From: Nitrosopumilus sp.
Lineage (GTDB): Archaea; Thermoproteota; Nitrososphaeria; Nitrososphaerales; Nitrosopumilaceae
Length of the DNA: 64,000 nt
Direction: 5' to 3'
NCBI GenBank assembly: GCA_965207445.1
Contig: CBDBLX010000002.1
Coordinates: 1,623,849 to 1,687,848, forward strand
The notes below the pieces were generated by a model. It saw nothing but the letters and a program-made list of their open reading frames with translations. It ran no database searches and was not told where the DNA came from. The position numbers and the translations under genes are program-made. Shown in pieces: positions 15,244 through 64,000 of the stretch (its first letter is position 1; each line of letters starts with the position of its first letter).

Positions 15244-16335
15244 CTAACTGAGTGTCATAATCTTGTCGATGACATGTTTTGTAAACTCAGATGTTGTACA
15301 CGACCCACCCATATCAACAGTGGTAATACCAGACTTAACAAGATCATATATAGCCGAAGATATCAAAGAGGAAGCATGTGTACAAGAATTGTCATTATGT
15401 TTTGCACCCAACCAATCGAGCATCATAGATACAGACAACAGAAATGATGATGGGTTTGCCACATTCTTTCCTGCAATATCAAATCCTGCCCCATGTACAG
15501 GCTCAAATAGTGCAAATTTATCACCAATGTTTGCAGCAGGTGCCATGCCCAAGCCACCAACCACTTGAGAAGACTCATCAGATAAAATATCACCAAAAAG
15601 ATTAGTAGTCACGATAACATCAAACTTTTGGGGTTCCCGTATCAGATTCATAGCACATGCATCAACATACATTTGATCAAATAATACATCAGGATACTTT
15701 TCAGAGACAGCAGAACACGCATCAGCAAACACACCATCAGTTATACGCATTACATTTGATTTATGTACACATGTGACACGCATGTCTGGTTTTTGACGAC
15801 AAAGTGCAGTCTCAAATGCAAAGGTTGCAATTCTAGTTGATGCCTTTTCTGTTATGATACGCAGTGCAATGGCTGCTCGCCCACAGTCATCAACAGATAT
15901 GGTATTTGCCCCCACATTAGGTGAATTAATTGTAAATTCTTTACCTGTATAGAGATCTTCGGTGTTTTCACGAACAATAACCATATCAATATCATCTCGA
16001 AGGGCAGGTGTGCCAGGATACGAACGAGAGGGCCTGATATTGGCATACAAATCAAGTAATCGTCGAAGTACAACAATAACATCAGCAGCAGACTCACCCA
16101 CAGGAGCCTTCAAGCACGCATCAGAACCACGTATTTCAGATAATGTCTCAGGTGGTAGTGCTTCGCCAGTCTGGGCAAGGGCTGCATCACCTGCTTTTAA
16201 CTCTACAATACAAAGATCAGGGCACTTTGAGATATTTGATATAGTATTCATTACAGAAAGTGCAGAATCAGAAAGTTCTGGTCCAATACCATCACCTGTG
16301 ATGAGGGATATATTATACACCATTATACAATCCAC
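15244..16335 (-). CDS. leuB: 3-isopropylmalate dehydrogenase (isocitrate/isopropylmalate dehydrogenase family)
   Basis: GDGIGPE, RENTEDLY, HKSNV, NLFGDILSD, EPVHG; downstream of ilvB-ilvH-leuA on the same strand. Confidence 0.85.
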   Translation of the reverse strand: MDCIMVYNISLITGDGIGPELSDSALSVMNTISNISKCPDLCIVELKAGDAALAQTGEALPPETLSEIRGSDACLKAPVGESAADVIVVLRRLLDLYANIRPSRSYPGTPALRDDIDMVIVRENTEDLYTGKEFTINSPNVGANTISVDDCGRAAIALRIITEKASTRIATFAFETALCRQKPDMRVTCVHKSNVMRITDGVFADACSAVSEKYPDVLFDQMYVDACAMNLIREPQKFDVIVTTNLFGDILSDESSQVVGGLGMAPAANIGDKFALFEPVHGAGFDIAGKNVANPSSFLLSVSMMLDWLGAKHNDNSCTHASSLISSAIYDLVKSGITTVDMGGSCTTSEFTKHVIDKIMTLS

Positions 16336-16591
16336 TCAAAGGGGAAATTTAGTATTTACTATACAAATAGTGTGTTGCATAATTTGTAAATTTACACACC
16401 TCTGAGTGTTGTGTCCATGTAGTGAGCCGTACAATATAGATAGCACAAAGGTCAAGATACACAACAACGTTACCAGCATATCGCGCTCAAGCCTAAAAGA
16501 CCAGCATGGCGATCCAATCTACTCTGTTTTGTCCAGCAACCAGATATGGATCAAGTCCCCCAATCTTCCAAATTAACTCAGCTGTCAGTAC

Positions 16592-16704
16592 GTCAGTAGT
16601 TCACAATGTGCCCAATTTTAATGATCTTATTTCTAATTATACTGTGCGGCAGGTTTACAATGGCAAGTAACTACCGTGCTCCAATTCCCACCAAAGTAAT
16701 CTTC
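16592..16704 (-). mobile_element. Isolated right end of the ISH3-like element
   Basis: GTCAGTAGTTCACAATGTGCCCAATT... is the reverse complement of ~24390-24500. Confidence 0.85.
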
Positions 16705-16708
16705 TAAT

Positions 16709-16856
16709 GTGTGAACCAAGCTCCATGACAGATATGATCATTCAAAAATAAATCTGTCCAAATGTCACGCATACACGATATTCAATATATAGATAGAAAT
16801 GTGACTAAATATAGGTATATAATTTTATTATTACATCCACAGAGCTTGGTGCACAC
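16709..16856 (+). mobile_element. MITE family A (148 bp)
   Basis: TIRs GTGTGAACCAAGCTC...GAGCTTGGTGCACAC. Confidence 0.88.
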
Positions 16857-17098
16857 GATTATTTCAAGCACGAAATTACAAAAATCCACTGTACAGAAAC
16901 TTACGTCCGTCGCCATATTTATGAGCATTAATAATTAGATCTGAACGCTTATCTTGTGAGCATCATAATATGATCAAAGTTTTAAAATAAATAAATAAAT
17001 AAATAAACAAATAAAAAAATGTTGCATTATCTGCAATATCTAGACTGCTTACAGTCATCTTTTTACACAGTTGGAATTACTAGTAAAATCATTACGCC

Positions 17099-17272
17099 TT
17101 ATTCGCCACCCGGTGCAAAGGACACTTTTTTACCCTTTACAACAAATTTTACCGTTTCTGGATACTCCATCAACTCCATGATAGGTTTTGGTATCCTACA
17201 AAGGTGGCTCCCAAGTCCGTTATGGTTTACGTTCATTTCAAATTCACGTGCGCCTTTTTTCCAACGAGACAT
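17099..17272 (-). CDS. Small AbrB/MazE-like DNA-binding protein (57 aa, below the ORF-track cutoff)
   Basis: MSRWKKGAREFEMNVNHNGLGSHLCRIPKPIMELMEYPETVKFVVKGKKVSFAPGGE*; IPKPI..L...V.F swapped-hairpin pattern. Confidence 0.65.
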   Translation of the reverse strand: MSRWKKGAREFEMNVNHNGLGSHLCRIPKPIMELMEYPETVKFVVKGKKVSFAPGGE

Positions 17273-17962
17273 AAAATTGCATATGTAGAGTTACTTTTAA
17301 TGCTTTTGATCAGTATGTGACAACGGAAATGAATATTTTTTATTAAAATAATTACAATGTTATTTGGTAATATTACAAATATTAATCAAAAGGTAAAAAA
17401 TATAATAAAAATTAATATGAATTTAAATACAATAGTAATATGTTATTTTTTTATGCCATTTTGCAAACATTTGAATTAAACTTTATACCGCCTATTACAG
17501 TACGATCAAACTAGAGGTAATACAAGTGACAGATTGCATTATTTAACAAATGCAAAAAACACTCAAATATGAGCACAGAATAAAACGTACTCAAACATAA
17601 CAACAGACTACACAGATCAAACAAGTGACACTATAAAGTAATTATAATTTTGTTCAGGGGTGTCAAGATATGGTTTTTGTTGGTATTGTATAATGATGTT
17701 CATAAATTTTGGCACAATGAAAAAATTATGTTGGGTGGTTTTTAACAGACATCTTTGCATAGGAATGCTCAGTGATTTAGATTTGCCATATTTTTAAAAT
17801 ATAAAATGTCAAAAAATGTGGTGTTGAGGATCTATGATACACACGTGCGCTAACATGTAACGGGACATTAAACATAGAGACTGTAGACTGGCACATTTAG
17901 CCTACAACCGTATTCATCTATTTTGGAATCAGCAATGCTGGAATTTGCATTTACAAATGGGC

Positions 17963-18043
17963 GAGGTTGGTGCGTAATTGACGTTAGCATGCCTATGACC
18001 CTTTTGTGAGATTACTTGGTTTATTGCACATTCAATCTGCATA
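17963..18043 (-). mobile_element. Isolated right end of the IS5-like element
   Basis: GAGGTTGGTGCGTAATTGAC...TTTATTGCACATTCAATCTGCA matches 44263 onward and the reverse complement of ~21250-21327. Confidence 0.85.
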
Positions 18044-18334
18044 GATGTGTGTTGAGGTGTACAAGTAGGGGGTTTAACTGTTACTTTGTACGATTAGATC
18101 CTGTTTAAATAACAGATACGACTAAGATATAAGAGGAATTGGAGCAAGTATAATTATGATAGATAATCGAATTGAGATTACAATAGACATACCGCGGTCT
18201 GATTCCATACGTGACTCTGACAAGGAAAAAGACTGCAAAGACAAGACATCGGGTACCCGCCCCATGTATTTCTATCAGGGACCAACGATCATAAACAAAA
18301 GCATAATTATATCCAATCCAGAGCAGAATTAACG

Positions 18335-19576
18335 TTATACCTCTCGCCACACAATCTTTTCAGCGTGAATGTCTATCCTATCAACAGGCATGTTGCGCCT
18401 CAATTGAGCCGTTATCATGTCCTCTACTTGCCTTACCAAATCCTGCCGCATTTGCTCTGACATGCGTTTGTCTTGCGATGAGGTGTTCTGATCCGAGTCA
18501 TTGCCGGAAGGTTGCGATGGGGGCATAATGCTCAAGTTTAGTTGTGGCGGGATGCGCCTGATCCGTTTCAACTGCATTGGTCCCGAGTATTCGTGGCATC
18601 TGGCAGACGATTCTATACACGCAACAACTGCGTTGTCTTCCTCGTATACGTCCTTGTCATCATCATCAAAATATGCCAAGGTATTTTCAAATGAATTGAG
18701 GTTCAAGTCCTTTTCATACTGTAGGAACAGGTCCCAGCACAGTTCTTCTAGTTCACCATCCATGTCGCTTACCTGCAGCCCCATCTGTTTGGCCTCGCGC
18801 CTTCCAACGGAGTGTCCGTGGATAAACGTGCACTCAGTAAGTGCTGTTATTACGTTTTGAATCTCAGCGTCAGTCAATGTGGGTTTTACCTGCCTGAGCA
18901 TCTTTTCTGCGATTGCTCGGGCATAAGAATGCACGCGGTTTATCTGCCCCAGTATAGGTGGGCACAGCGCATCTGCCAGTGATTTTGTCAAATTTGCCAG
19001 TGCATCCTGACTTGTAATCCCGACCTTATCTTTTATGAATGACAGGTATGAGGGTATGTCCTCTGTACTGATCGTCATCGGAAAGAAGTCACTCGGCGCC
19101 CCATCGCGCCCACTAGTCATCTGCGGGTCAATTGGGCCCAGTTCGCCCTTTCTACCCATCAGAATCTTGTCTGTTCCCAATGCAATCAGTGTGGTTGCGC
19201 TAAATGCCTTGAAGTAAAGCATATTAGTTGAGCACATATTATGAATACAAAATATTAGAAAACTATCGGATCTTTAATGAAACTATTATGCCTTGAAGGT
19301 GATCAGTGCATTTAGTTCTTCACCGTACTCTCTGAGCATACTAATGATGGGCCAGGGGGTATCCAGATTTCCGCCCCTTGAATAGAGGTAAAGGTCAATC
19401 TTCTGTACCTTTTCATTGTTGTTCATACTCCTCAGGTGTTCGTAAATCCACCTTATGGCGTCACTTGAAATCTGCGCGTTTAAAATCGGCCTATCTCCTA
19501 CAAAGTACACTAGGACTTTTGAATTGCGGTGCTGCTCTATCTTTTCTATGATGTTTCTACGATCTGCTCTGCCCAT
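18335..19576 (-). pseudogene. SDH-family ClpP-fold serine protease split by a MITE D fragment
   Basis: LYSRGG...ITFKA | FKAFSATTLIALG..I.MG..GELGPIDPQ, HGHSV; 11-bp duplication ATGCCTTGAAG at 19204 and 19288 flanks the insert. Confidence 0.85.
19226..19291. mobile_element. MITE family D, half copy
   Basis: AGTTGAGCACATATTATGAATACAAAATATTAGAAAACTATCGGATCTTTAATGAAACTATTATGC is identical to 61199-61264. Confidence 0.9.
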
Positions 19577-19647
19577 TTGAATATCTGTCGTACCATTCTA
19601 TTAAAAATGAATCCATTTGGTAGGTATTAAAGCAATGTGGTTGAATT

Positions 19648-21327
19648 GAGGTTGGTGCGCAATTCATCAAATTGCCACCTGCATCGTACTTGCAAAGTCA
19701 TCTGCAAATATCACCAGAGTTTTATGTGCATATATTTAATAAGCTCATATATAAAAGTATCTGCGCGCATACCAAAAGTGACTTATAGGGGCATCCCAAT
19801 TGAATAATTGTAATATGAACAAAGGGGATGCTAAACAACGTTGACTAGCCAATCTTATCAACGTATCGTTTGTGAAGTGTGGTGGAACGACGACATATGT
19901 GTGGGCTGCCACAACATGCTATGCTACACAGAATGACGTCCATTACAATGCATGGCTTGTGATGAATGTGACGCCTGCTTGTTGTTTGTGTAAATTTAGT
20001 GTGTGAGTTTCAAGTAAGAACAGATTATGGAGGTAGACCGTACAGTGACAGAGCAGCAGCACAAGCGACGCGAAGGTTACTGGCAGTATTACGAACAGGC
20101 ACGCAAATCTGAGCAGGATTTTATGCGCAAGACATGGTTGTCGGCGATACGAAAAAACCCACATCCGTGCAAGGAAAAGAAAACAAATAGAGGAGGATGC
20201 AAGCCTGTACACTTGCGTGGCAAGATGGATTTTTTGTGTCTTTTTAAAGTTGCAAAAAATATTCCTTTTCGTGATGTGGTAAATGAGCTTGGACATATGC
20301 ATGATGAATGGGTTGACGAGCCGATGCCTGATTAGTTGAGTAACCGAACATATGCAAACAATTGATCTCGACTGGCTTGATTCTATTTTGGCATATACTG
20401 CCAATATGTGTCTAACTGAACTTAAAAAATCGGGGACAGATCCGGTACCGATAAAATACAAAGAGTCCATACTTACGCACGGATCCGAGGATTTTGAGAG
20501 CGGTAAACAAGACGTAAAACAAGAACCTACAGCTCCAATTGGGGTAGACAGTAGTGGGGTAGAGACTGACAGGTACGAAAAACAAGAAAAATCTAATCAT
20601 TTACCACAAGACTTTGAGCCGACACGCATCAAGACGTACCTAAAATATCACATTACTGCGATAACAGGACACCAGATCATACTTGCATCATACACAACTC
20701 CAAGCAATGTGAGTGACACGCCAATGCTTCCATATATGGTCAACTTTTTCGTAAAAAACTATACACAGATTGAAGAGTGCTTATTCAACGGAGACAAGAG
20801 ATACATTCGGATCAAAACTGTGAGATAATATTCAATGCAAACATGAAACCAAACATAAAGCAGCGCAATCACACAGATGGCGCAGGTCATACAAACCGTG
20901 GCAAACCAAGCAGAAAAAAGGCAGCGGAGATCTTTGACAAAGATGCATACAAACAACGCGCACTTATCGAGGCAATATTTGGAGCAGTAGAAGAGACAAA
21001 GAATCACAGGCTACACTATCGTATGCGTCTGGCCAAAAACCAAAAGCGGTTTGGTAAAATACTATCAATTGCAGGGAATATCAACGTCCTAAACAGATTT
21101 ATCTGCGCTCATAAAAAAGGGCAAAAGATTCCATCATACCAATGATAGTGACTGCTATCACACTTGCACGTCCATATTCTATAATCCATGTCTGCCAAAA
21201 CACACATGTATATTCAAAAACGAAACGCACTATAGATAGATTCCAGTCTTTTGTAGATTGAATGTGCAATAAACCAAGTTCACAGACGGGTCACAGGCAG
21301 GCCAAATGTCAATTACGCACCAACCTC
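19648..21327 (+). mobile_element. IS5-family-like insertion sequence (1.68 kb), transposase fragmented (20027-21145)
   Basis: TIRs GAGGTTGGTGCG(C/T)AATT; DDE motifs GVDSSG, GDKRY, YKQRALIEAIFG across three frames. Confidence 0.85.
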
Positions 21328-21531
21328 CCATGCCAGACATATATTAAAAATGATCACACGTTATTTGCAACCAAACTTTGTTCTGTGCTAAGACTTTTGA
21401 GTGTCGCTATAGGAAGAGTACATCATGCAACCATTCAGTATACGAGGGTGGTGGGGCGTAGGTATTACGTAGTTAAGTATCTTATTAGTCAAGTTCAAAC
21501 ATTTAAAAGCGGTATTTCCTATTAGCTAATA

Positions 21532-22560
21532 ATGATTACACATCAGGAAATAGGGGTTTTAAATCATGAACCCAAGCTTAAGGAGAGTAAAGAGAGGGTG
21601 GCACGACACTTTGAGGATGCAGGGTGGACGCTTTATTACAACCAGATGATCCGAGGTAGAATAGCGGATCTGGTGGCCGAAAAGAACGGAAAACTGGCAA
21701 TAATCGAGGTAAAGGGGAGTGGATTGAAACGGGACAATGCCATTCGGACAGTCCTGCATTTTAAAAATGCCGTAAATTACGCATACCTGGCAATCCCCGG
21801 TGCCCTAGGCCAGAGAATGGAAAATATGTGCAGAGAGTTGGGAGTGGGCCTGATTACCATAGACGACGACATTATAGAGGCAGTATCTCCCCAGGAAACA
21901 GAGGCGCTGGACTCAGTAAGGTGTAGGATCCTTCATGTGGAGAAAAAGCGGCCTGCAGTTCGGAGAAAGAGTCTCCTGCAGACGTTATTCCGATCAACGA
22001 CGCTTGTGCACGTACTGGGCTTTCTGCTGCTGAATCAGACAGGCGAGTTTTATCTAAACGAGCTGGCACAGAGGACAGGGCTGGCACCATCGACTGTCCT
22101 GAGGGAACTGAACAGGGTGGAGCCATTAGGTATCATCTCCAAGACCAAAAAGGGCACGGCAGTGTTTTATAGGATAAACAGGAACTGCATAATCCATGAG
22201 GAACTAAGACGGATATTTCTAAAGTTTGAGATTGCAGACATGATCATCACAAAGGAACTTGCACAGTACGACATAAGGTACGCGCTGATTTACGGTTCGT
22301 TTGCCAAGGGGACAGAGACAGAGTCAAGTGACATAGACTTGTTGGTTATAGGCCAGGTATCTAGGGACAGGTTTTATGAGTCAGTTTCAGCCTTGGAAAA
22401 CAAGATAGGGAGGGAGATCAACGCAATCGTGTGGGACGAGCAGCAGTTTAGTAGTCAGAAGGAGAGATCATCACTATTAGGCCATATAAAGCTCAATGAG
22501 ATAATCATGATAAGTGGGGATGAAGATAGATTTAAGCAATATTGCACGATAAGAAGATAG
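21532..22560 (+). CDS. PD-(D/E)XK-like + winged-helix + minimal nucleotidyltransferase (MNT antitoxin-type) fusion
   Basis: IADLVAEKNGKLAIIEVK; YLNELAQRTGLAPSTVLREL HTH; LIYGSFAKG..TESSDIDLLVIG. Confidence 0.85.
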   Translation: MITHQEIGVLNHEPKLKESKERVARHFEDAGWTLYYNQMIRGRIADLVAEKNGKLAIIEVKGSGLKRDNAIRTVLHFKNAVNYAYLAIPGALGQRMENMCRELGVGLITIDDDIIEAVSPQETEALDSVRCRILHVEKKRPAVRRKSLLQTLFRSTTLVHVLGFLLLNQTGEFYLNELAQRTGLAPSTVLRELNRVEPLGIISKTKKGTAVFYRINRNCIIHEELRRIFLKFEIADMIITKELAQYDIRYALIYGSFAKGTETESSDIDLLVIGQVSRDRFYESVSALENKIGREINAIVWDEQQFSSQKERSSLLGHIKLNEIIMISGDEDRFKQYCTIRR

Positions 22561-22763
22561 TACACTATCAAAGTAGTCAAGAAGAGATTGACTCGAAGAT
22601 CAACATAGTAGATGCCAACCTGAGATCGTGTAAGCATATCGTACTGATAAATGATCCGGACGTAGACGACACTGCATACAAGGAAGCTCATAACGCAATA
22701 CTGCAAGCCAGATGGATGCAACATAATGAGTTATCATGTTTACAGAATTGCACCAATTCTTGA
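22542..22763 (+). pseudogene. HEPN-like protein, probably C-terminally truncated
   Basis: Overlaps the MNT stop; AYKEAHNAILQA resembles the HEPN N-terminal helix; no RX4-6H motif follows. Confidence 0.55.
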
Positions 22764-22854
22764 TTCCCCATGTCAGTGGGGTGTAGAGCAATGCAGAGCA
22801 AATCAAGGCATGGATATATCTGATGATGCTATTTGGGTGTGTAAGAGGATGAGG

Positions 22855-22940
22855 CGCTGGGGGCGGGATTTGAACCCACATACGCTTGGGCGCGTACTCC
22901 CTCTTCAGAGGAGCGGCATGCCGAGTTAGCCGACCCCAGC
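22855..22940 (-). tRNA. Atypical tRNA: Ser-type body (long variable arm, G73) with GAA (Phe) anticodon
   Basis: Acceptor GCTGGGG/CCCCAGC, D-stem GGC/GCC, anticodon arm CTCCT-CTGAAGA-GGGAG, V-arm TACGC-GCCCAA-GCGTA, T-arm GTGGG-TTCAAAT-CCCGC, discriminator G. Confidence 0.9.
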
Positions 22941-22974
22941 AACCTTTTTTAACACACTTTGCTTAATACCCTAT
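22941..22974. promoter_or_regulatory. Putative divergent TATA boxes for the tRNA (-) and small RNA (+)
   Basis: Minus-strand TATTAAG about 22-28 nt before the tRNA 5' end; plus-strand TTTTAA about 24-29 nt before 22976. Confidence 0.5.
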
Positions 22975-23026
22975 AGGTGCACTAAAGAGGAGCAAATTGG
23001 GCGCGTACTCCAACAGCACCTTTTTT
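22975..23026 (+). ncRNA. Putative antisense small RNA to the adjacent atypical tRNA
   Basis: AGGTGC/GCACCT closing stem then T6; contains AGAGGAGC (=22907-22914) and TTGGGCGCGTACTCC (=22886-22900), both complementary to the tRNA transcript. Confidence 0.65.
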
Positions 23027-23134
23027 ATCATAACATCAGTTGACTACGACTCGTCTCATTTTTGTCATGAATCTCTTTAGACCCACTCAGTATAGGATTC
23101 GAGTCCCTTTTTGCCATCTTGTGTTGTTGCCGTC

Positions 23135-24501
23135 GTCAGTAGTTTGCAATATGTTTTATATGATTTTATTTGAATAATCTACAATGTAGTTAAATTTTAA
23201 TGATTATATTTAATCAAATCAAATAGAAAGTGTAACATATGGGAATATTCTAGTATTTCTGATTATATATGAAAAACTATGTATTAAAACATTAATATAA
23301 ATTATGAGAGGTAAATTATAAAGTTTTACAAAAACGATTCTTCAATTTTGGAGTAAAAAAATTAACCAGATATAACAACAAGTATGGCGTGGATGATTAT
23401 CTCGGTACACTTGCCACCATGTCACTTGACAACATGTGCGTAAATGCAGCAACACACAAAAGAAAACATAATGAGGCTAACTATTTTAGAAAAAGTGAGC
23501 GCATAAACATACCATCTGAAAATACTGTGCTCAAGTCTAAAGAGCTCAGATCTAGAACAGGTGAAACAGTGGGGTGACGAGAATATCAAATGTTTAACAA
23601 TGCCAAAAAACACAACATGCTCAAAAAAGGCAAACACCATTGCAATTGATGAGCAGATGGGAATATTATGGCAAGGCACTTAAATCTGAGATGCTAAAAA
23701 CAAAACACAATAATGGTACTAGGATTTCATTCATTTATGACAGCGCAAATGATGAACCACGCAGGTAATTGTTTGCAAATCGTGTGACCAATAATGATAA
23801 AATGGTCGCAGTCATGCGTAAAATTATTGAAAAATTAATTCGAGAGCATACACGTCCGGAACTTGTCCTCTTTGATCGAGGTTTTTACAACGTTGCATGT
23901 ATAGAAGAACTTTTGCGCCTGCCTTTCATAATACTAGCAATTAAAAATAAGCGTATATAAAAGTATATTTTAAAAGTTCACAACAAAAAAAGAAAACCTG
24001 CATCAATTATTGAGATGTGTGACAAAAACAAAAAACAGCAAGTTTACATTACTTGTCATCAAAAAAAAACAACGTCAAAAAAACTGATGAAATAATCGAT
24101 CAGTATGTAACATTGGCCACAAATATGAAAATCACTAACAAAAGCAAACTCATCAAAACCATCCCAGAGACTTGTTGCAAGCGCTGGATAATAGAGACAG
24201 GATTATAGTGATAAAAAATACTACTCCAAAGACAACTAGCAACGCCTTGTAGGTTCGATTATTGTTGATATTTTTTGGAGTGTTGCTATGTGGTTTGTGG
24301 GCAATGGTAAGATACGAAAATTACGACGTACTTGCAAATGAAAAATTATTCACAATGGATACTTTATGGATTCAATTGCCGGATTGATCAGAGGACTGCT
24401 TTGATAGGAACTAAAACAGAATAGTTACTTGCCAATAAATCTACCGCACTGTATAATTAGAAATAAGATCATTAGAATTGGGCACATTGTGAACTACTGA
24501 T
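23135..24501 (+). mobile_element. ISH3-like (IS4 superfamily) element, transposase pseudogenised
   Basis: TIRs TCAGTAGTT(T/C)(G/A)CAAT; LFDRGFYNV and KRWIIETG motifs in broken frames; second copy at 62122-63511. Confidence 0.85.
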
Positions 24502-24650
24502 TTTAATTAGAAAAACGTTGTGACATCGGGATTAAAAACAAATTCATTTTACAAGTTATTTAATCAAATGTAATTACGTTGAATTTGTATCCAAAATTAT
24601 ATGCTAAATGGCATTGCTAAATGACATTGCTAAATGATATGCTAAATGAT

Positions 24651-26258
24651 TCAAGAAGCATTTTTGTCTTGTAACATCTTTTTGAGCATAATACGGTTCA
24701 TACCCTCAATTACAGCCTTTACGCTAGTAGTGACTATATCCTTGCCAATTGACTTTGCAGAAGCAGAGTTGCCATTGTCATCCTCAACAGATATCGTAAC
24801 CTCACATAGTGCAGCAGAACCACCCGATATAGAGGCAAGTCCATAATCTTTAATGTGCATATGTGTAGTCTTGTCAATAATACGCTCAATTGCATTGAAT
24901 GCCGCATCAACAGGTCCCTGTCCATAGTCCGTACCAGAGAATTCAGAACCATCAATGTCAAGTTTTACAAACGCATAAGGCATAGTACCAATTCCAGTAG
25001 ACACTGAAAATCCAGTCAGATTGACAAGTCTTTTTATTCCACTATCCCCTAAAATATCACTTGCAAAGGACAAAAGCTCAACATCAGTAATGATCTTGCC
25101 CTCATCACCAAGTGACTTTACACGCTCTAATATCGCCTGTGCTTGCTTCTCATCAGGTGTAATACCATATTCTTTGAGCATTGCATTCATACCATGTAGT
25201 CCCGCATGCTTTCCTACATGAAGCCAACGTTTCCGGCCCACAATCTCAGGGCTTATTGGCTCATATGTTAATGGGTTATTTAGTATGCCATGTGTGTGTA
25301 TGCCAGACTCATGGCCAAATGCATTCTCACCCACAATTGCCTTGTTTGGTTGCACCTGGATGCCAACCACACTTGCCAAGTACCGTGATGTGTCATAGAG
25401 TTTTTCGGAGATTATGTTAGTCTCATATGTGATCTCCTCATCACCACTCAGAGTTGTATGTGCAAGACACTGCAATGCCATTGAGAGTTCCTCAAGTGAT
25501 GCATTGCCTGCACGCTCACCTATTCCATTGATCGTAACGTGTGCACACACTGCACCAGCGTTTATTCCAGACAAAGCATTAGCAACTGCAAGCCCAAAGT
25601 CATTGTGACAATGCACACTAACAGGCAAGTTTGACGCTTTTATAGCATCTTTTGTGATTGTTGCCATATATTGTGGAGTGGAATATCCAACAGTATCAGG
25701 AATGTCAATTCTATCAGCACCAGCAGCTGCGACTGCTGTAAATACCTCGCCGAGAAATTTACGATCAGTGCGAGTAGCATCTTCAGCAGAAAATTCCACC
25801 TGCATGCCTCTGGACTTTGCATATTCCACAGCATCAACAGCCCTTTCCAAGGCATCGACTCTGCTCATCTTTAACTTGTACTGTAGATGAATATCTGATG
25901 TTGCAATAAATGTATGCACATATGATAGTCCCGCATCAGCAGCAGAGTCAATATCCTTGCGGTTTGCGCGTGCAAGGCCTGCAATCTCACAGGAGAGTCC
26001 ATCAGAGGCAATCATAGATACTGCCTTGTGCTCTCCTTTTGAGATGACAGGAAAACCTGCTTCAATGGCATCAACACCAAGATCATCTAGTCTACGTGCA
26101 ATTGCAAGTTTTTGATCAGGGGATAATGATATTCCAGGTGTCTGTTCGCCATCGCGTAGTGTAGTATCAAAAATTCGTATGTGTTTTTTTGTTGTGTTTG
26201 TGGTTGTGTCTGTTGTTGTTGTTGTTGTTGTTTTATCAGTTTGCACATCAGGTGACAT
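24651..26258 (-). CDS. leuA: 2-isopropylmalate synthase (LeuA/CimA family)
   Basis: FDTTLRDGEQ, HCHNDFG, GIGERAGN, C-terminal regulatory domain GPVDA. Confidence 0.92.
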   Translation of the reverse strand: MSPDVQTDKTTTTTTTDTTTNTTKKHIRIFDTTLRDGEQTPGISLSPDQKLAIARRLDDLGVDAIEAGFPVISKGEHKAVSMIASDGLSCEIAGLARANRKDIDSAADAGLSYVHTFIATSDIHLQYKLKMSRVDALERAVDAVEYAKSRGMQVEFSAEDATRTDRKFLGEVFTAVAAAGADRIDIPDTVGYSTPQYMATITKDAIKASNLPVSVHCHNDFGLAVANALSGINAGAVCAHVTINGIGERAGNASLEELSMALQCLAHTTLSGDEEITYETNIISEKLYDTSRYLASVVGIQVQPNKAIVGENAFGHESGIHTHGILNNPLTYEPISPEIVGRKRWLHVGKHAGLHGMNAMLKEYGITPDEKQAQAILERVKSLGDEGKIITDVELLSFASDILGDSGIKRLVNLTGFSVSTGIGTMPYAFVKLDIDGSEFSGTDYGQGPVDAAFNAIERIIDKTTHMHIKDYGLASISGGSAALCEVTISVEDDNGNSASAKSIGKDIVTTSVKAVIEGMNRIMLKKMLQDKNAS

Positions 26259-26758
26259 TACACACCACTCCTAGCCAACGCTGCAACTCCAGTCCTTGCA
26301 ACATCTATAATACCAAATGGTGTTGCCAACTCTTCAAACGCGCGTATCTGATCAGGAGTTGCAGTCAATTCTACCATAATAGAGTCACGCTTTACATCAT
26401 GTACCTTGCCGCCATACGCGCTTGCCATCTTGTTTATCTCCATACTATCACTTGCTTGATTAATTTTAATACGAAATATGCACAATTCACGATACACAGT
26501 CATATTCTCATCTAGTCGCTCCACATGGACTACATCGATCATCTTGTCAAGTTGTTTTACAATTTGCTCAATCTGTCGTATATCTCCATATGTGGTAATA
26601 GTCATTTTAGAGTACTCTGGATTTGTCATAGGACCAACTGAGATACTATCGATGTTAAAATTGCGTGCCCGAAACATATGAGTCACCTTGAATAATATGC
26701 CAGGCTTATTCTCGACTCTTAATGATAAAATTGCCCACATTTTAGCATCATTGACCAT
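26258..26758 (-). CDS. ilvH: Acetolactate synthase small subunit
   Basis: ACT domain ENKPGIL...FNIDSISV, KQLDK, ARTG. Confidence 0.95.
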   Translation of the reverse strand: MVNDAKMWAILSLRVENKPGILFKVTHMFRARNFNIDSISVGPMTNPEYSKMTITTYGDIRQIEQIVKQLDKMIDVVHVERLDENMTVYRELCIFRIKINQASDSMEINKMASAYGGKVHDVKRDSIMVELTATPDQIRAFEELATPFGIIDVARTGVAALARSGV

Positions 26759-26790
26759 ACATCACTTACACACACATCATAATTATACCA

Positions 26791-28500
26791 TTACGATGGC
26801 AATATCATATCTTTGAGAGGTGTACCAGGGGCAACAAATGGAAGGACATCCTCTTCGGGATCAATTGGTATGTCAATTACAGTAGCAACATTGCTATGTA
26901 GCGCCGTCTTTATTGCAGAGTCAAGTTCTGACATTGACTGCGCCCGCAATCCTTGCGCACCATACGATTCAGCAAGTTTAACATAATCAGGACATTTACC
27001 TTGGTCAACTCCAATCATGCGGCGGTCATAAAATGTTCGCTGCCACTGTGCAACCATACCAAGTGAATAGTTGTTTATCAAAAATACAATAACTGGAATA
27101 TCCTCCAAAACCGCAGTTGCAAGAGAGTTCTCAGTCATATTAAAACTACCATCACCTGCAATGTCAACTACATGAACATTAGGACGTGCCACCTTTGCAC
27201 CAATTGCAGCAGGAAATCCCCATCCCATGGTACCAAGTCCAGTAGAGCTGAAAAATGTGCCAGGATTTATCACATCAAAGAATAAAGACGCCCACATTTG
27301 GTGTTGTCCTACCTCAGTAGTTACTATAGAGTCAGCAGGTAATAACTCACGTAGTTTACGCAGTATCTTGGCCGCCCCCATCTCACCAGGGTGTATCTTG
27401 AGGTTCTCTTTCCAGTATGATTTTGTATCTTTGACATTTTTGAGCCATGTCGTATTTGTAGTAATTTGAGGTTTGTTCTGTAATAGCTTTAGCATTATAC
27501 GTAGCGACGCTTTTACATCACCGACCACAGCAACACTTGTTGTCTGATTCTTTCCAATCTCAGCAGGGTCAACATCCATGTGAATGATCTTGCGATGGTG
27601 CTCAAAGTCATCAAATGTTCCAATAGAACGATCAGAGAATCTCGTACCGATTGCCAAAACACAGTCTGCTTGATCAATTATCTTGTTTGCTTCTGCATGA
27701 CCATGCATACCAATTGGACCTAGTGATAATGGGTGATTTTCAGGAAATGCACCCTTACCTTTGAATGTGGTCACTACAGGTATCATCAATAACTCTGCTA
27801 CTGCTTGCAGTTCTGCAAAAGCAGACGATATTATAGTGCCACCACCTGCCAATATGACAGGTCGCTCAGAATTTAACAGCATGGTAATTGATCGCTCGAC
27901 ATTTTTAACATCAGGATCGGTCCATGGATGATACCCACGTATGTTAAACTCATCAATAAATTTCATGTCTGCTTTGTTTGACTGCACATCCTTTGGAATA
28001 TCGATTAGAACAGGTCCTGGCCTGCCAGTCTCTGCAATAAAGAATCCTTTTTTGACACATTCAGGTATCTGTTTTGCATCTCTAGGCTGAAACGCGTATT
28101 TAACGACTGGGTTTGTCATACCAATTATATCACTCTCCTGAAACGCGTCTTTGCCTATCATATCCACCATTACTTGACCCGTCACTGCCACCATTGGTGC
28201 AGAATCGGCCTGTGCAGTAGCAATTCCAGTCAGTATATTAGTAGCACCAGGACCAGATGTTGCAAAACAGACACCAGGCTTGCGACTTACTCTGCCAAAA
28301 CCATCTGCCATATGAGCAGCAGATTGCTCGTGTCGTACTAGTATGTGACGTATATCGCATCGTGCAAATTCATCATACATTGGTAAATTAGCGCCACCAG
28401 GAAGTCCAAAGACTTGTTTTACACCCTCATTTTCCATTGCGACCATTAATGCTTTTGCACCACTCATATGCAGAGATTGCTCTAAAAGATCACTAGTCAA
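26791..28500 (-). CDS. ilvB: Acetolactate synthase large subunit
   Basis: RHEQ, TSGPGATN, GRPGPV, ThDP motif GDGSF...NN. Confidence 0.96.
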   Translation of the reverse strand: MTSDLLEQSLHMSGAKALMVAMENEGVKQVFGLPGGANLPMYDEFARCDIRHILVRHEQSAAHMADGFGRVSRKPGVCFATSGPGATNILTGIATAQADSAPMVAVTGQVMVDMIGKDAFQESDIIGMTNPVVKYAFQPRDAKQIPECVKKGFFIAETGRPGPVLIDIPKDVQSNKADMKFIDEFNIRGYHPWTDPDVKNVERSITMLLNSERPVILAGGGTIISSAFAELQAVAELLMIPVVTTFKGKGAFPENHPLSLGPIGMHGHAEANKIIDQADCVLAIGTRFSDRSIGTFDDFEHHRKIIHMDVDPAEIGKNQTTSVAVVGDVKASLRIMLKLLQNKPQITTNTTWLKNVKDTKSYWKENLKIHPGEMGAAKILRKLRELLPADSIVTTEVGQHQMWASLFFDVINPGTFFSSTGLGTMGWGFPAAIGAKVARPNVHVVDIAGDGSFNMTENSLATAVLEDIPVIVFLINNYSLGMVAQWQRTFYDRRMIGVDQGKCPDYVKLAESYGAQGLRAQSMSELDSAIKTALHSNVATVIDIPIDPEEDVLPFVAPGTPLKDMILPS

Positions 28501-62121: not shown

Positions 62122-63511
62122 GTCAGTAGTTCGCAATGTGTTTTATATGATTTTATTTGAATAATCTACAATGTCATTGAACGTTGATGATCATACTTGA
62201 TCAGATCAAATAAAAAGTGTAACATATGGGAATATTTTAGTACATCTAATTGTATATGAAAAATGAGGTACTAGAACATCAATATGAATTAGGACAAGTA
62301 AATTATAAAGATTTGCGAAAACAATTAGTCGATCTTGGACTAGACATATCAACCAGATATAACAGCAAATATGGTGCGGATGATTATCTTGGGACACTTG
62401 CTACCATGTCACTTGACAACATGTGCGTAAATGCAGCAACACACAAAAGAAAACGCAATGAGGCCAACTATTTTAGAAAAAGCGATCTCATAAACATACC
62501 ATCTGAAAATACTGTGTCCAAATGCCTAAAGAGTGCAGATCTAGAGTACGTGAAAGTGAAGGTGACAAGAATGTCAAAACTGTTTAACAATGCCAGAAAA
62601 CACAACATGCTCAAAAAAGGCAAGCATTATTGCAATTGATGAGCGGATGGGAATATTATGGCAAGGAACTTAAACCTGAGATGCTAAAAACAAAGCCCAA
62701 AAATGACACTGCGCGATTTCATTCAGTTATGACAGCACAAATGGTAAATCAAGACAGGTAACATACCTTTGTTTGCACATCGTGTGCAATAATGATAAAA
62801 TGGCCACAATCATGCGTAAAATTATTGAAAAATTAATTCGCGAGGATGTGTGTCCAGAACTTGGTCTCCTTGATCGAGGTTTTTACAACGTTGCATGCAT
62901 AGATGAACTTTTGCGCTTGCGCCTGTCTTTCATAATGCCGGCAATCAAAAATAAGCGCATATAAAAGTACAGTTTAAAAGTTCACAACAAAAAGAGAAAA
63001 ACTGCACAAGTCATTGAGATGCGTGATAAAAACAAAAAAGCAGTAAAGTTCACTCTACTTGTCGTCAAAAAAAACAATGCCAAAAAAACTGATGACATAG
63101 TTGATCAGTATGTAGCATTTGCCACAAATATGAAAATCACTAGCAAAAGCAAACTCATCAAAACCATCCCAGAGACTTATCGCAAGCGCTAGATAATAGA
63201 GACTGGATATATGGTGATAAAAAACACGACTCCAAAGACAACTAGCAACGCCTTGCATCTTCGATTACTGTTGATATTTTTTGGAATGTTGTTATATGGT
63301 TTATGGGTAATGGCAAGGTACGAAAATTACGGCGGACTTGCAGGTGGAAAATTATTCACAATGGGTGCGTTTCTGGATTCAATTGCCGGATCAATCAGAA
63401 GACTGCTTCGGTGGGAATTGGAGCACGGTGGTTCCTTGTCATTGCAAATATGCCGCACTGCATAATCAAAAATAAGATCATTAAAAATTGAGTATATTGC
63501 GAACTACTGAC
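62122..63511 (+). mobile_element. ISH3-like element, second copy, transposase pseudogenised
   Basis: TIRs GTCAGTAGTTCGCAAT...ATTGCGAACTACTGAC; LLDRGFYNV; YRKR*IIETGY. Confidence 0.88.
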
Positions 63512-64000
63512 GTTGCCGCACGACATGTCACGATATAACCAAATAACAAAAATTCACTCATCTCCATGGCCAACTTACATAATCATCTAGTCACAACACC
63601 TAAAATTTTACATCATATCAACTGCTAAAATTTACATAACTCACAATTCGGACTATCATACCCATCACCTTACATCTAGATATAATCAATTCTGGATTAC
63701 CTCTATGATATCATTAATTGACCCGTGCAGGTGTGCCGGTTTATGATCATCAATAATTAGACCTGAACGCTTACGTTATGCAACACGCTAGATCTAACCT
63801 TAAATCTATATTGGTGATTCGTGTAACATATACTAATGTTAGTCGAAAAAACCTATCGAACCGAATGTGACCGGAACATTCAAGAAATAATTCGTGTCAC
63901 TATGCCTCACAATGTCACACGTAACATCATTACTAAAAAGGAAATACTAAAGATCATATTCTCTGCAAAAGAAATGCTAACAGAGCAAAACCCATACAAA

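Follow-up and report, generated by a model that had tools for sequence, protein, structure and literature searches.

The question raised by this locus is what a transfer RNA (tRNA) gene that combines a serine-type body with a phenylalanine anticodon does in an archaeal genome. The gene lies in a 64-kb stretch of DNA (hereafter, the window) from the genome of a Nitrosopumilus species (2.6 Mb, 39.6% GC, two contigs). It is the only tRNA gene of the window: ARAGORN places it at 22853-22940 on the minus strand with anticodon GAA, and the Rfam covariance model RF00005 matches 22940-22855 with 44.7 bits against a gathering score of 29, covering model positions 1-71. As described below, the gene is an intact, horizontally acquired extra gene, it belongs to a class of similar genes that recurs in archaea, and its product would probably insert serine at phenylalanine codons. 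The features on which the first part of the argument depends are as follows.

22855-22940, minus strand: supernumerary class-II tRNA gene with anticodon GAA (ARAGORN, Rfam, folding and read-derived contigs)
22904-22906, minus strand: anticodon GAA (TTC on the plus strand), middle base at 22905 (ARAGORN, Rfam and read-derived contigs)
22962-22968, minus strand: weak TATA-like box TATTAAG at positions -28 to -22 of the tRNA (comparison of A/T 8-mers)

The tRNA is 86 nt long and forms a 7/5 cloverleaf. Its acceptor stem (GCUGGGG/CCCCAGC) contains 7 bp, which are Watson-Crick throughout and include G1:C72, and is followed by G73 and an encoded CC. Positions 8-9 are U8 and C9, and the D-stem that follows consists of G10:C25, G11:C24 and C12:G23 plus a U13.U22 mismatch; a 3-bp D-stem is also found in the tRNA-Ser genes of the host, there with U13:G22. 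The anticodon stem (CUCCU/GGGAG) has 5 bp, the last of which is U.G, and closes the loop C32 U33 G34 A35 A36 G37 A38. The variable region of 17 nt can be divided into U + ACGC + GCCCAA + GCGU + AU, and the T-arm (GUGGG-UUCAAAU-CCCGC) is standard. The first-pass annotation of this DNA, which was made from the letters alone, had described a fully paired cloverleaf with a 5-bp variable arm. In fact, the helices form and the arm is long, but the D-stem has only 3 bp next to its mismatch, and the arm has 4 bp unless the flanking U:A also pairs. The same annotation, which gave no strand, named G73 and the loop CUGAAGA with U33, GAA and G37, all of which can be read directly in the minus-strand tRNA.

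The tRNA carries A14, G18G19, A21 and G26, and its functional core is complete: in addition to U8, A14, G18G19 and U33, it has the R15:Y48 Levitt pair in the form A15:U48, G53-T54-Psi55-C56, A58 and C61. The minimum free energy (MFE) fold is the cloverleaf, with -40.2 kcal/mol and z = -3.09, and only 1 of 200 shuffled sequences is as stable. The anticodon is also reproduced in sequence assembled independently of this genome: Logan contigs of four sequencing runs show no difference over 22667-23165, the anticodon included, and no variant at base 22905, which the first-pass annotation had left to be verified. The middle base of the anticodon is therefore not an error of this assembly. Note that the four runs represent one sample of one study, possibly the source sample of the genome itself.

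To which amino acid does such a body belong? According to the available text of PMC9976931 (the other papers cited below by number are likewise represented by the available parts of their text), serine identity comes chiefly from the long arm and G73 and does not involve the anticodon, G73 acts as an antideterminant against Haloferax LeuRS, and archaeal phenylalanine identity consists of A73, G20, C13:G22 and G34 A35 A36, the last three being phenylalanine identity elements in every domain. The tRNA shares with the tRNA-Ser genes of its host G73, G1:C72, a variable region built of 1 nt, 4 bp, a loop and 2 nt, and a D-loop beta region of two nucleotides after G19, which is longer in host tRNA-Leu. 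Among the phenylalanine elements it has G34 A35 A36 only, with G73 in place of A73, C20 in place of G20 and U13.U22 in place of C13:G22, and its 17-nt arm stands where an archaeal tRNA-Phe has a short variable loop of 5 nt. Its anticodon loop is identical to that of the host tRNA-Phe, G37 included, in agreement with the earlier description of CUGAAGA as the archaeal tRNA-Phe loop. Other assignments fit less well: the anticodon is GAA rather than the NGA or GCU of serine; a tRNA-Leu of archaea would have A73 and an extended beta region; and an archaeal tRNA-Sec would have a 9/4 rather than a 7/5 branch, a long D-stem rather than one of 3 bp, and UCA rather than GAA. The chimera proposed in the first-pass annotation, serine-type marks joined to a phenylalanine anticodon loop, is thus what the gene contains.

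The host has its own genes for each of these functions. Its tRNA-Phe(GAA) has A73, G20, C13:G22, a 5-nt variable loop and the anticodon loop CUGAAGA. There are four tRNA-Ser genes (GGA, UGA, CGA and GCU), of which Ser(GGA) contains an intron and has A37, and five tRNA-Leu genes (UAG, CAG, GAG, CAA and UAA), all with A73. Since canonical Phe(GAA), Ser(GGA) and all five Leu genes coexist with it, the tRNA is supernumerary; the separate tRNA-Phe and tRNA-Ser(GGA) genes on which the first-pass annotation depended are both there. The identity of the tRNA to host genes is 63-67% for Ser, 61-64% for Leu and 64% for Phe, which indicates a foreign gene and not a recent point mutant of a host tRNA. A BLAST search of the tRNA with its flanks against 60 related genomes found matches to the T-arm only and no full-length relative, and an exact pattern with an open anticodon (GCTCCTCTNNNGAGGGAGTACGCG) found no near relative in the genome, viral or metagenome contigs searched.

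We propose, with a probability of roughly 0.55, that the gene encodes an extra class-II tRNA that would be charged with serine and would read UUC and UUU (UUY). It would be transcribed from its weak promoter and matured, after which the single SerRS of the host, the product of one gene with the N-terminal arm domain (Seryl_tRNA_N), would charge it with serine irrespective of the anticodon. The Ser-tRNA would then compete with the normal tRNA-Phe at UUC and UUU, resulting in low-level Phe-to-Ser substitution, and this substitution would be restrained by the weak promoter and, probably, by an upstream element that copies the variable arm. Serylation, use on the ribosome, the restraining effect of the element and any gain for the carrier are steps that we infer from sequence. 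Reassignment of UUY, whether throughout the genome or within the element, is unlikely because the normal tRNA-Phe coexists.

Similar genes occur elsewhere. In 151 genomes of the genus, we searched for CTGAAGA followed by a gap exceeding class-I tRNA length and then a T-loop, and found one further real tRNA, so that 2 of the 151 genomes carry one. The second tRNA, in genome G150, has an unrelated sequence of the same design (G73, CUGAAGA and a 16-nt arm) and occupies another chromosomal site. With a narrower pattern, 185,579 species, each represented by one genome, yielded at least 120 matches. We kept those with paired T- and acceptor stems in which the anticodon stem adjoins the loop without interruption, a requirement that intron-bearing tRNA-Phe genes fail. 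Among the matches listed, 22 were further well-formed long-arm GAA tRNAs, with G at position 73 in 14, A in 4 (Leu-like), C in 2 and U in 2. The 14 G73 members belong to Thermoplasmata, Methanoperedens, other Methanobacteriota, Diapherotrites, Undinarchaeota, Thermoproteota, Nitrosopumilaceae and three bacteria. In a scan of the taxonomic class of the host, at least 5 of 401 genomes contained a well-formed G73 member, including the host and G150, all within the host's own family. Because the patterns fix the loop CUGAAGA and the T-arm GGGUUCRAAUCCC, the sample is biased and all these counts are lower bounds.

One of three matches listed from viral contigs was genuine and belongs to an archaeal virus. 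It sits between genes on the same strand of a 35-kb contig that encodes terminase-like, MCM, Dam, HerA-type and scaffold-like proteins, and tblastx found no match between this virus and the insertion that carries the tRNA in the window. The phenylalanine residues of the viral MCM align mainly with F, I, L or A of solved MCMs, and only one aligns with S. A normal tRNA-Phe is also present in four of five other carrier genomes checked; in the fifth, the 0.9-Mb metagenome-assembled genome G178, the pattern did not match a canonical tRNA-Phe, which does not imply that the gene is absent.

Sequence variation within the class is of the kind expected if the tRNAs are functional. Between orthologues (the sets L091/L132/L148 and L039/L062) stems and loops differ and GAA is kept, and two tandem paralogues in genome G177 differ by compensated pair changes in the anticodon and T stems. 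In a comparison of 22 G73 members, U8 and A14 are each present in 20, GG is found in every one, and 19 have a D-stem of at least 3 bp; the 15:48 pair forms without exception, as G:C in 19 members and as A:U in 3. None of these positions played any part in the filters. With compensatory stem changes and perfect 15:48 covariation, the class behaves like a functional tRNA. A metagenome control for chance mutation of the anticodon compared the three position-35 variants of GGA: among the matches listed, well-formed long-arm G73 tRNAs numbered 4 for GAA, 0 for GCA and 0 for GUA, and each of the 18 GUA matches listed had A73 and resembles an ordinary tRNA-Tyr of bacteria. In this metagenome sample, GAA is the favoured anticodon of long-arm tRNAs with G73.

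A second feature of the class lies immediately upstream of the gene, where part of the tRNA sequence is present again. Neither the class nor this feature figured in the first-pass annotation.

22886-22900, minus strand: segment of the tRNA, GGAGUACGCGCCCAA, that is duplicated upstream (repeat family D15, a 100% identical 15-mer)
22997-23011, minus strand: upstream direct copy of this 15-mer (variable-arm mimic), starting 71 nt before the 5' end of the tRNA
22986-22993, minus strand: second short copy, GCUCCUCU, comprising G26, the 5' strand of the anticodon stem and C32 U33 (sequence reading)
22976-23026, no strand assigned: upstream element enclosing both copies, with GGTGC...GCACC on the plus strand and then T6 (23021-23026)

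The 15-mer (GGAGTACGCGCCCAA) consists of the 3' strand of the anticodon stem and the 5' strand and loop of the variable arm. The GCUCCUCU copy is placed after it, that is, in permuted order with respect to the tRNA, and the same permuted order is found at locus L150, although the 8-mer by itself could be due to chance. To quantify such copies, we compared the segment from A38 to the arm of each tRNA with the 130 nt upstream of that tRNA. In 13 archaeal G73 loci, the longest word of its own arm found upstream was 15, 12, 13, 12, 12, 16, 7, 10, 8, 12, 11, 7 and 5 nt long, respectively. A copy of at least 10 nt is present in nine of the 13; these copies are 10-16 nt long, in direct orientation and 46-83 nt upstream. 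In G150, for example, a 12-mer at -83 repeats the arm of that tRNA, whose sequence is different. As controls, 144 cross-locus pairs shared at most 8 nt, the tRNAs' own downstream flanks at most 6 nt, and 2 of 2,600 shuffled sequences reached 10 nt. Of three chromosomal loci of archaeal type found later, two have a copy (a 12-mer at -54 in L266 and a 13-mer at -80 in L316), and the third, L223, shares only 6 nt.

No copy of this kind precedes any of the 46 other tRNA genes of the host, and three of these have some 10-mer in common with a flank; of 169 other tRNAs in the scanned loci, 15 have such a 10-mer, which is usually a D- or T-loop word. In the three bacterial G73 members, the 300 nt upstream contain no direct copy of at least 10 nt, and by eye none is seen within 130 nt of the viral member. 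The strongest evidence that copy and arm co-vary is provided by the tandem units of G177. Their upstream elements are near-identical over about 90 nt except in the arm-like part, and three differences there (CTGCTG against TCGCAG) are mirrored in the arms of the respective tRNAs. The units themselves are at 1231-1318 and 1710-1796 on the minus strand of locus L165 (contig C50 of that genome), beside an IS200-type transposase.

How the element might act can be considered from its arrangement. In some lineages, it is a compressed colinear copy of the tRNA, with a D-arm word, an anticodon-like hairpin and an arm-like hairpin; at the host locus and at L150, its pieces are permuted and enclosed by an outer stem. 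With two matched pairs in one genome and a sequence that is different everywhere, recognition by a protein is unlikely, and base pairing with the complementary strand, or continual copying, appears more likely. On the opposite strand, most loci show the complement of the arm, then a hairpin and then a T-run; T-runs located 81-135 nt out occur on the antisense strand in 10 of 13 loci and on the sense strand in 3 of 13. At the host locus, an RNA from the opposite strand would be about 51 nt long (22976-23026), preceded by TTTTTTAA. It is possible that the element specifies a small antisense RNA, transcribed divergently and directed at the exposed variable-arm loop.

Folding of the element is unexceptional on either strand. 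Comparison of the folding energies of both strands favours the sense strand in 6 of 12 loci; the antisense strand is strongly favoured only in the three Methanoperedens loci, and the sense strand in three loci of Nitrosopumilaceae type. Rfam searches of 12 member loci with permissive E-values found the tRNA only and no RNA family for the element. A C/D-box guide was rejected, since inspection by eye showed no C or D boxes by the complementary stretch; nor, on inspection, do the helices around the copies form the bulge-helix-bulge of an intron or a permuted tRNA. We rank antisense control first among possible mechanisms, a sense leader competing for the pairing partners of the arm second, and a by-product of recombination third. 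The last fits poorly because the spacing is short, no element intervenes and the arrangement recurs across phyla.

These observations allow a wider reading, which we offer tentatively: a mobile two-part RNA module, present in archaea of several phyla and in at least one virus, may consist of a serine-accepting, UUY-reading tRNA and a cognate arm-copy element that silences this mistranslator until release. The element would pair with the variable arm, which is the handle of the synthetase, for example as a divergent antisense RNA that opens it. Such a module could serve as a tRNA-based toxin and antidote or as a switchable "error generator", and the matched divergence in G177 would then reflect selection for private pairs that do not cross-react.

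Several observations weigh against the proposed reading. The best promoter A/T 8-mer of the gene scores 6/8, against 7-8/8 in 45 of 47 host tRNA genes, and no run of four or more T occurs within 60 nt 3' of the tRNA, as is also the case for 18 of 47 host genes. The pair G11:C24 is the reverse of C11:G24, a pair that the host Ser genes have and that acts as a serine element in bacteria, and this reversal is atypical even among class members. The variable arm is 2-3 nt longer than those of the host tRNA-Ser genes, overall identity fails to separate Ser from Leu or Phe, and the serine identity rules used here were not derived from the lineage of the host. Furthermore, PheRS reads G34 A35 A36 strongly, so that some charging with phenylalanine is possible. 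As for the class, its frequencies are lower bounds obtained with restricted patterns, and the full five-helix fold is the RNAfold MFE structure in only 5 of the 22 G73 members, which we take as a limit of MFE prediction.

The alternative that survives best, though we consider it unlikely, is that the RNA works off the ribosome as a decoy, a sensor, a carrier or one half of a two-RNA module that pairs through the arm, whether or not it is charged. The co-varying copy implies that something reads the arm sequence, which translation does not need. In addition, the class is rare and patchy (at least 2 of 151 genomes in the genus and at least 5 of 401 in the class), and its chromosomal copies sit among housekeeping genes without apparent harm. 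On the other hand, the loop of tRNA-Phe type (U33, GAA and G37) is conserved, though the search pattern forced the loop, all the tertiary and elbow nucleotides for use by the ribosome and elongation factor are kept, and no dedicated partner protein recurs beside the gene. This last point concerns six other contexts, none of which has a recurrent protein partner and several of which lie among housekeeping genes, with a transposase within a few kilobases in four; the neighbour of PDC-M05A type described below is not conserved at these six loci, and no dedicated synthetase was found near the tRNA or its relatives.

Less probable again is a spare tRNA-Phe that is charged with phenylalanine through its anticodon and whose body is atypical, for instance so as to evade a nuclease directed against the normal tRNA-Phe. 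Phages carry replacement tRNAs, and one member of the class is virus-borne. To our knowledge, a long variable arm is not known in any tRNA-Phe. The anticodon bases are phenylalanine identity elements in all domains (PMC9976931) and the loop equals that of the host tRNA-Phe down to G37, but A73, G20 and C13:G22 are all missing, and G73 is found in 14 of the 22 additional long-arm GAA tRNAs among the matches listed and in all five members of the class-wide scan.

We think it improbable, and more so than a spare tRNA-Phe, that the gene is an inert remnant, either a decaying tRNA copy or an integration scar with the upstream copy as a recombination by-product. It lies in an insertion full of broken genes, has a weak promoter box and a U.U mismatch in the D-stem, and tRNA fragments 5' of tRNA genes are known as borders of integrated elements (PMC3293823). 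However, its helices and tertiary pairs are intact, with covariation at 15:48 that includes its A15:U48, and the class shows compensatory changes, including those of two paralogues in one genome. The copy, for its part, follows the arm of its own tRNA in many unrelated lineages, at a distance of only 46-83 nt and with nothing inserted between the two, and Pfam and PHROG scans of the window found no integrase. Finally, a sequencing or assembly error, or a reassignment of UUY to serine in the carrying element, is very improbable: GGA is one base change from GAA and viruses with recoded stop codons exist, but the contigs of four runs agree, GAA occurs in many independent genomes, G37 differs from the A37 of host Ser(GGA) and the body is only 63-67% like host Ser, and the viral MCM aligns its phenylalanines as described above.

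Natural tRNAs in which body and anticodon do not match are already known from bacteria, nematodes, yeasts and human alleles. In the Candida CTG clade, a tRNA-Ser(CAG) with a serine-type body and a leucine-type loop with G37 inserts serine at a non-serine codon; this is a eukaryote in which the codon is reassigned genome-wide, whereas the host here keeps its tRNA-Phe and UUY behaves as phenylalanine where tested, in the viral MCM. That serine tRNAs mistranslate once they carry a foreign anticodon is well established (PMC9976931), and yeast and human variants provide examples. The closest functional parallel is the human tRNA-Ser-AGA-2-3 G35A, which with its AAA anticodon inserts serine at phenylalanine positions (PMC12993449, PMC9956149). 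In both cases, a serine tRNA reads phenylalanine codons because SerRS ignores the anticodon, which is a prediction in the present case. The human variant is a single-base allele of a normal gene, while the archaeal gene is diverged, separately inherited and mobile, has GAA with G37, belongs to a class that spans archaeal lineages and is preceded by a matching upstream element.

Bacterial allo-tRNAs have serine-type long arms and mostly non-serine anticodons, with the phenylalanine anticodon occurring once in a metagenomic set (PMC5389517). They are 8/4 or 9/3 tRNAs of bacteria; the archaeal tRNA is a canonical 7/5 with a 7-bp acceptor stem and a 5-bp T-stem, and the available text of that paper does not mention for them an upstream copy of the arm such as the archaeal class has. 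The nev-tRNAs of nematodes are class-II tRNAs with class-I anticodons that are weakly expressed and charged according to the body and not the anticodon (PMC4033280). They are eukaryotic, charged with leucine and have Gly or Ile anticodons, and a table in the available part of that review lists them for nematodes alone, with a dash for archaea and bacteria. The tRNA-ProX/ProRSx pairs of Streptomyces form a natural family of hybrid identity that mistranslates when expressed (PMC11415595, PMC10404621), but tRNA-ProX is bacterial, of class I, has oddities at A33/A34 and comes with its own synthetase (PMC11415595), unlike the archaeal tRNA.

The upstream copy also has a partial precedent. At the borders of integrated elements in archaea, the intact tRNA gene is preceded by a direct repeat of part of its sequence (PMC3293823). 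According to the available text, these border repeats flank an element of kilobase scale with a recombinase and cover a terminus of the tRNA; the copy in the archaeal class is internal (variable arm), lies 46-83 nt upstream with nothing between and occurs in unrelated lineages. We found no description in the open-access literature of an archaeal class-II tRNA with a phenylalanine anticodon or of an arm copy upstream of one, and a recurrent archaeal class of long-arm G73 GAA tRNAs has apparently not been described before. If its members are charged with serine, they would spread Phe-to-Ser errors horizontally among archaea and their viruses, which bears on the extent to which cells put up with deliberate mistranslation and keep it under control. 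A more immediate consequence concerns annotation, since members are now labelled "tRNA-Phe", which is probably wrong.

In the window, the gene lies in an insertion between two leucine biosynthesis genes, which contains the following features.

16336-24650, no strand assigned: lineage-specific insertion of about 8.3 kb between leuB and leuA (comparison with relatives)
15244-16335, minus strand: flanking leuB, 3-isopropylmalate dehydrogenase (Pfam Iso_dh, 3.8e-91)
24651-26258, minus strand: flanking leuA, 2-isopropylmalate synthase (Pfam HMGL-like and LeuA_dimer)
16593-16708, no strand assigned: left terminal repeat, a copy of a dispersed repeat of about 117 nt (inverted repeats I1 and I2)
24387-24500, no strand assigned: right terminal repeat, inverted with respect to the left (65 nt at 94% and 48 nt at 73% complementarity)
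23134-23211, no strand assigned: incomplete third copy of this repeat, some 110 nt past the upstream element (direct repeats D8 and D9)
21532-22560, plus strand: open reading frame (ORF) with a winged helix-turn-helix and a Pol-beta-type nucleotidyltransferase, convergent with the tRNA (Pfam Polbeta/NTP_transf_2/HTH)
18335-19576, minus strand: pseudogene split into two ORFs, of a virus-associated SDH/ClpP-like protease family (phrog_11747; Pfam SDH_protease)
20352-21145, plus strand: transposase-like fragments (phrog_4716 transposase, E = 2e-4, on 20777-21145; ORF translations)
23769-24208, plus strand: short ORFs, possibly transposase remnants, between the third and right repeats (motif reading of translations)

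The leuA and leuB genes are separated by 8,318 bp here and by 13-43 bp in 28 of the 30 congeneric genomes compared, the two remaining genomes having gaps of 0.9-1.2 kb; on the far side, a leuA-ilvN-ilvB block spans 24651-28500. The core of the inverted pair joins 16593-16657 with 24436-24500 (65 nt, 94%) and is extended by the 48-nt pair. The dispersed repeat has about 60 copies in the genome, one of them elsewhere in the window at 63394-63513, with 83-91% identity between copies, and it looks like a miniature inverted-repeat transposable element or the end of an insertion sequence. At the third copy (23134-23211), the read-derived contigs break and the k-mer depth in the sample reaches about 3950. 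Relatives thus lack the insertion, and a multi-copy element is present in inverted orientation at its two ends, which bears out the mobile island of the first-pass annotation.

We also considered an integrated element with an attachment (att) site in the tRNA, and rejected it since the Pfam and PHROG scans found no integrase and the ends are inverted copies of the dispersed repeat. No other partial tRNA copy of at least 14 nt was found elsewhere in the host genome, and neither a target-site duplication nor an intact transposase was found for the insertion. It looks like a repeat-bounded, partly decayed, transposon-like insertion. The split protease pseudogene matches phrog_11747 at positions 8-98 and 102-245 with its consecutive ORFs, and a PHROG scan found no family match for the ORFs at 23769-24208. 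The ORF at 21532-22560 matches the candidate phage-defence family PDC-M05A with E = 5.3e-42 (PADLOC). Its product of 342 aa has an N-terminal domain of unknown kind, followed by the winged helix and the nucleotidyltransferase, and it has no evident partner gene. The toxic or antiviral role suggested in the first-pass annotation is not directly supported by the locus: this one neighbour matches a candidate defence family, but it is not conserved beside other members, and one member of the class is itself carried by a virus. A Phe-to-Ser substitution might be a weapon, a stress device or an addiction module, or might simply be tolerated.

Some minor observations concern the surroundings of related tRNAs. 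In seven of seven contexts (the window, L037 and L163-L167), the 3' neighbour of the long-arm GAA tRNA is convergent with it. In three of the seven, the neighbour ends 25-50 nt from the tRNA, so that antisense read-through is conceivable, and in three the convergent neighbours are short unannotated ORFs only. Two Leu-like GAA tRNAs with A73 (L093 and L103) have partial tRNA copies downstream instead of upstream, namely 25 nt from the D-arm to the anticodon at +96 and, at +106, a stretch of 17 nt from the 3' end that resembles a classical att repeat of integration. In two Microbacterium genomes (L040 and L052), a long-arm tRNA with the loop CUGAAGA has C73 and pairs at only 6 of the 7 positions of its acceptor stem.

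The pattern CTGAAGA also occurs in genes of about 93 nt in Nitrososphaerales that ARAGORN identifies as tRNA-Arg (UCG or CCG), about 20-25 nt 5' of the T-arm, where it is probably part of an unusual insert or intron; such genes are found at L051, L053, L071, L087, L095, L128, L151 and L152 and in G060, G404, G453, G458-G460 and G467 (family f10), and 8 of 12 genomes of one family have them. In the host genome (G000), tRNA-Leu(UAA) at G000:C2:2271457-2271574 has two introns, one in the D-arm region and one after position 37; it was missed by ARAGORN and found by Rfam with 35.9 bits. Finally, the tRNA-Gln and tRNA-Gly genes of contig C1 (121 kb) and their flanks are identical to sequence near the start of C2, which suggests a duplicated or redundant segment of the assembly and fits the "contamination" figure of 5.5%.

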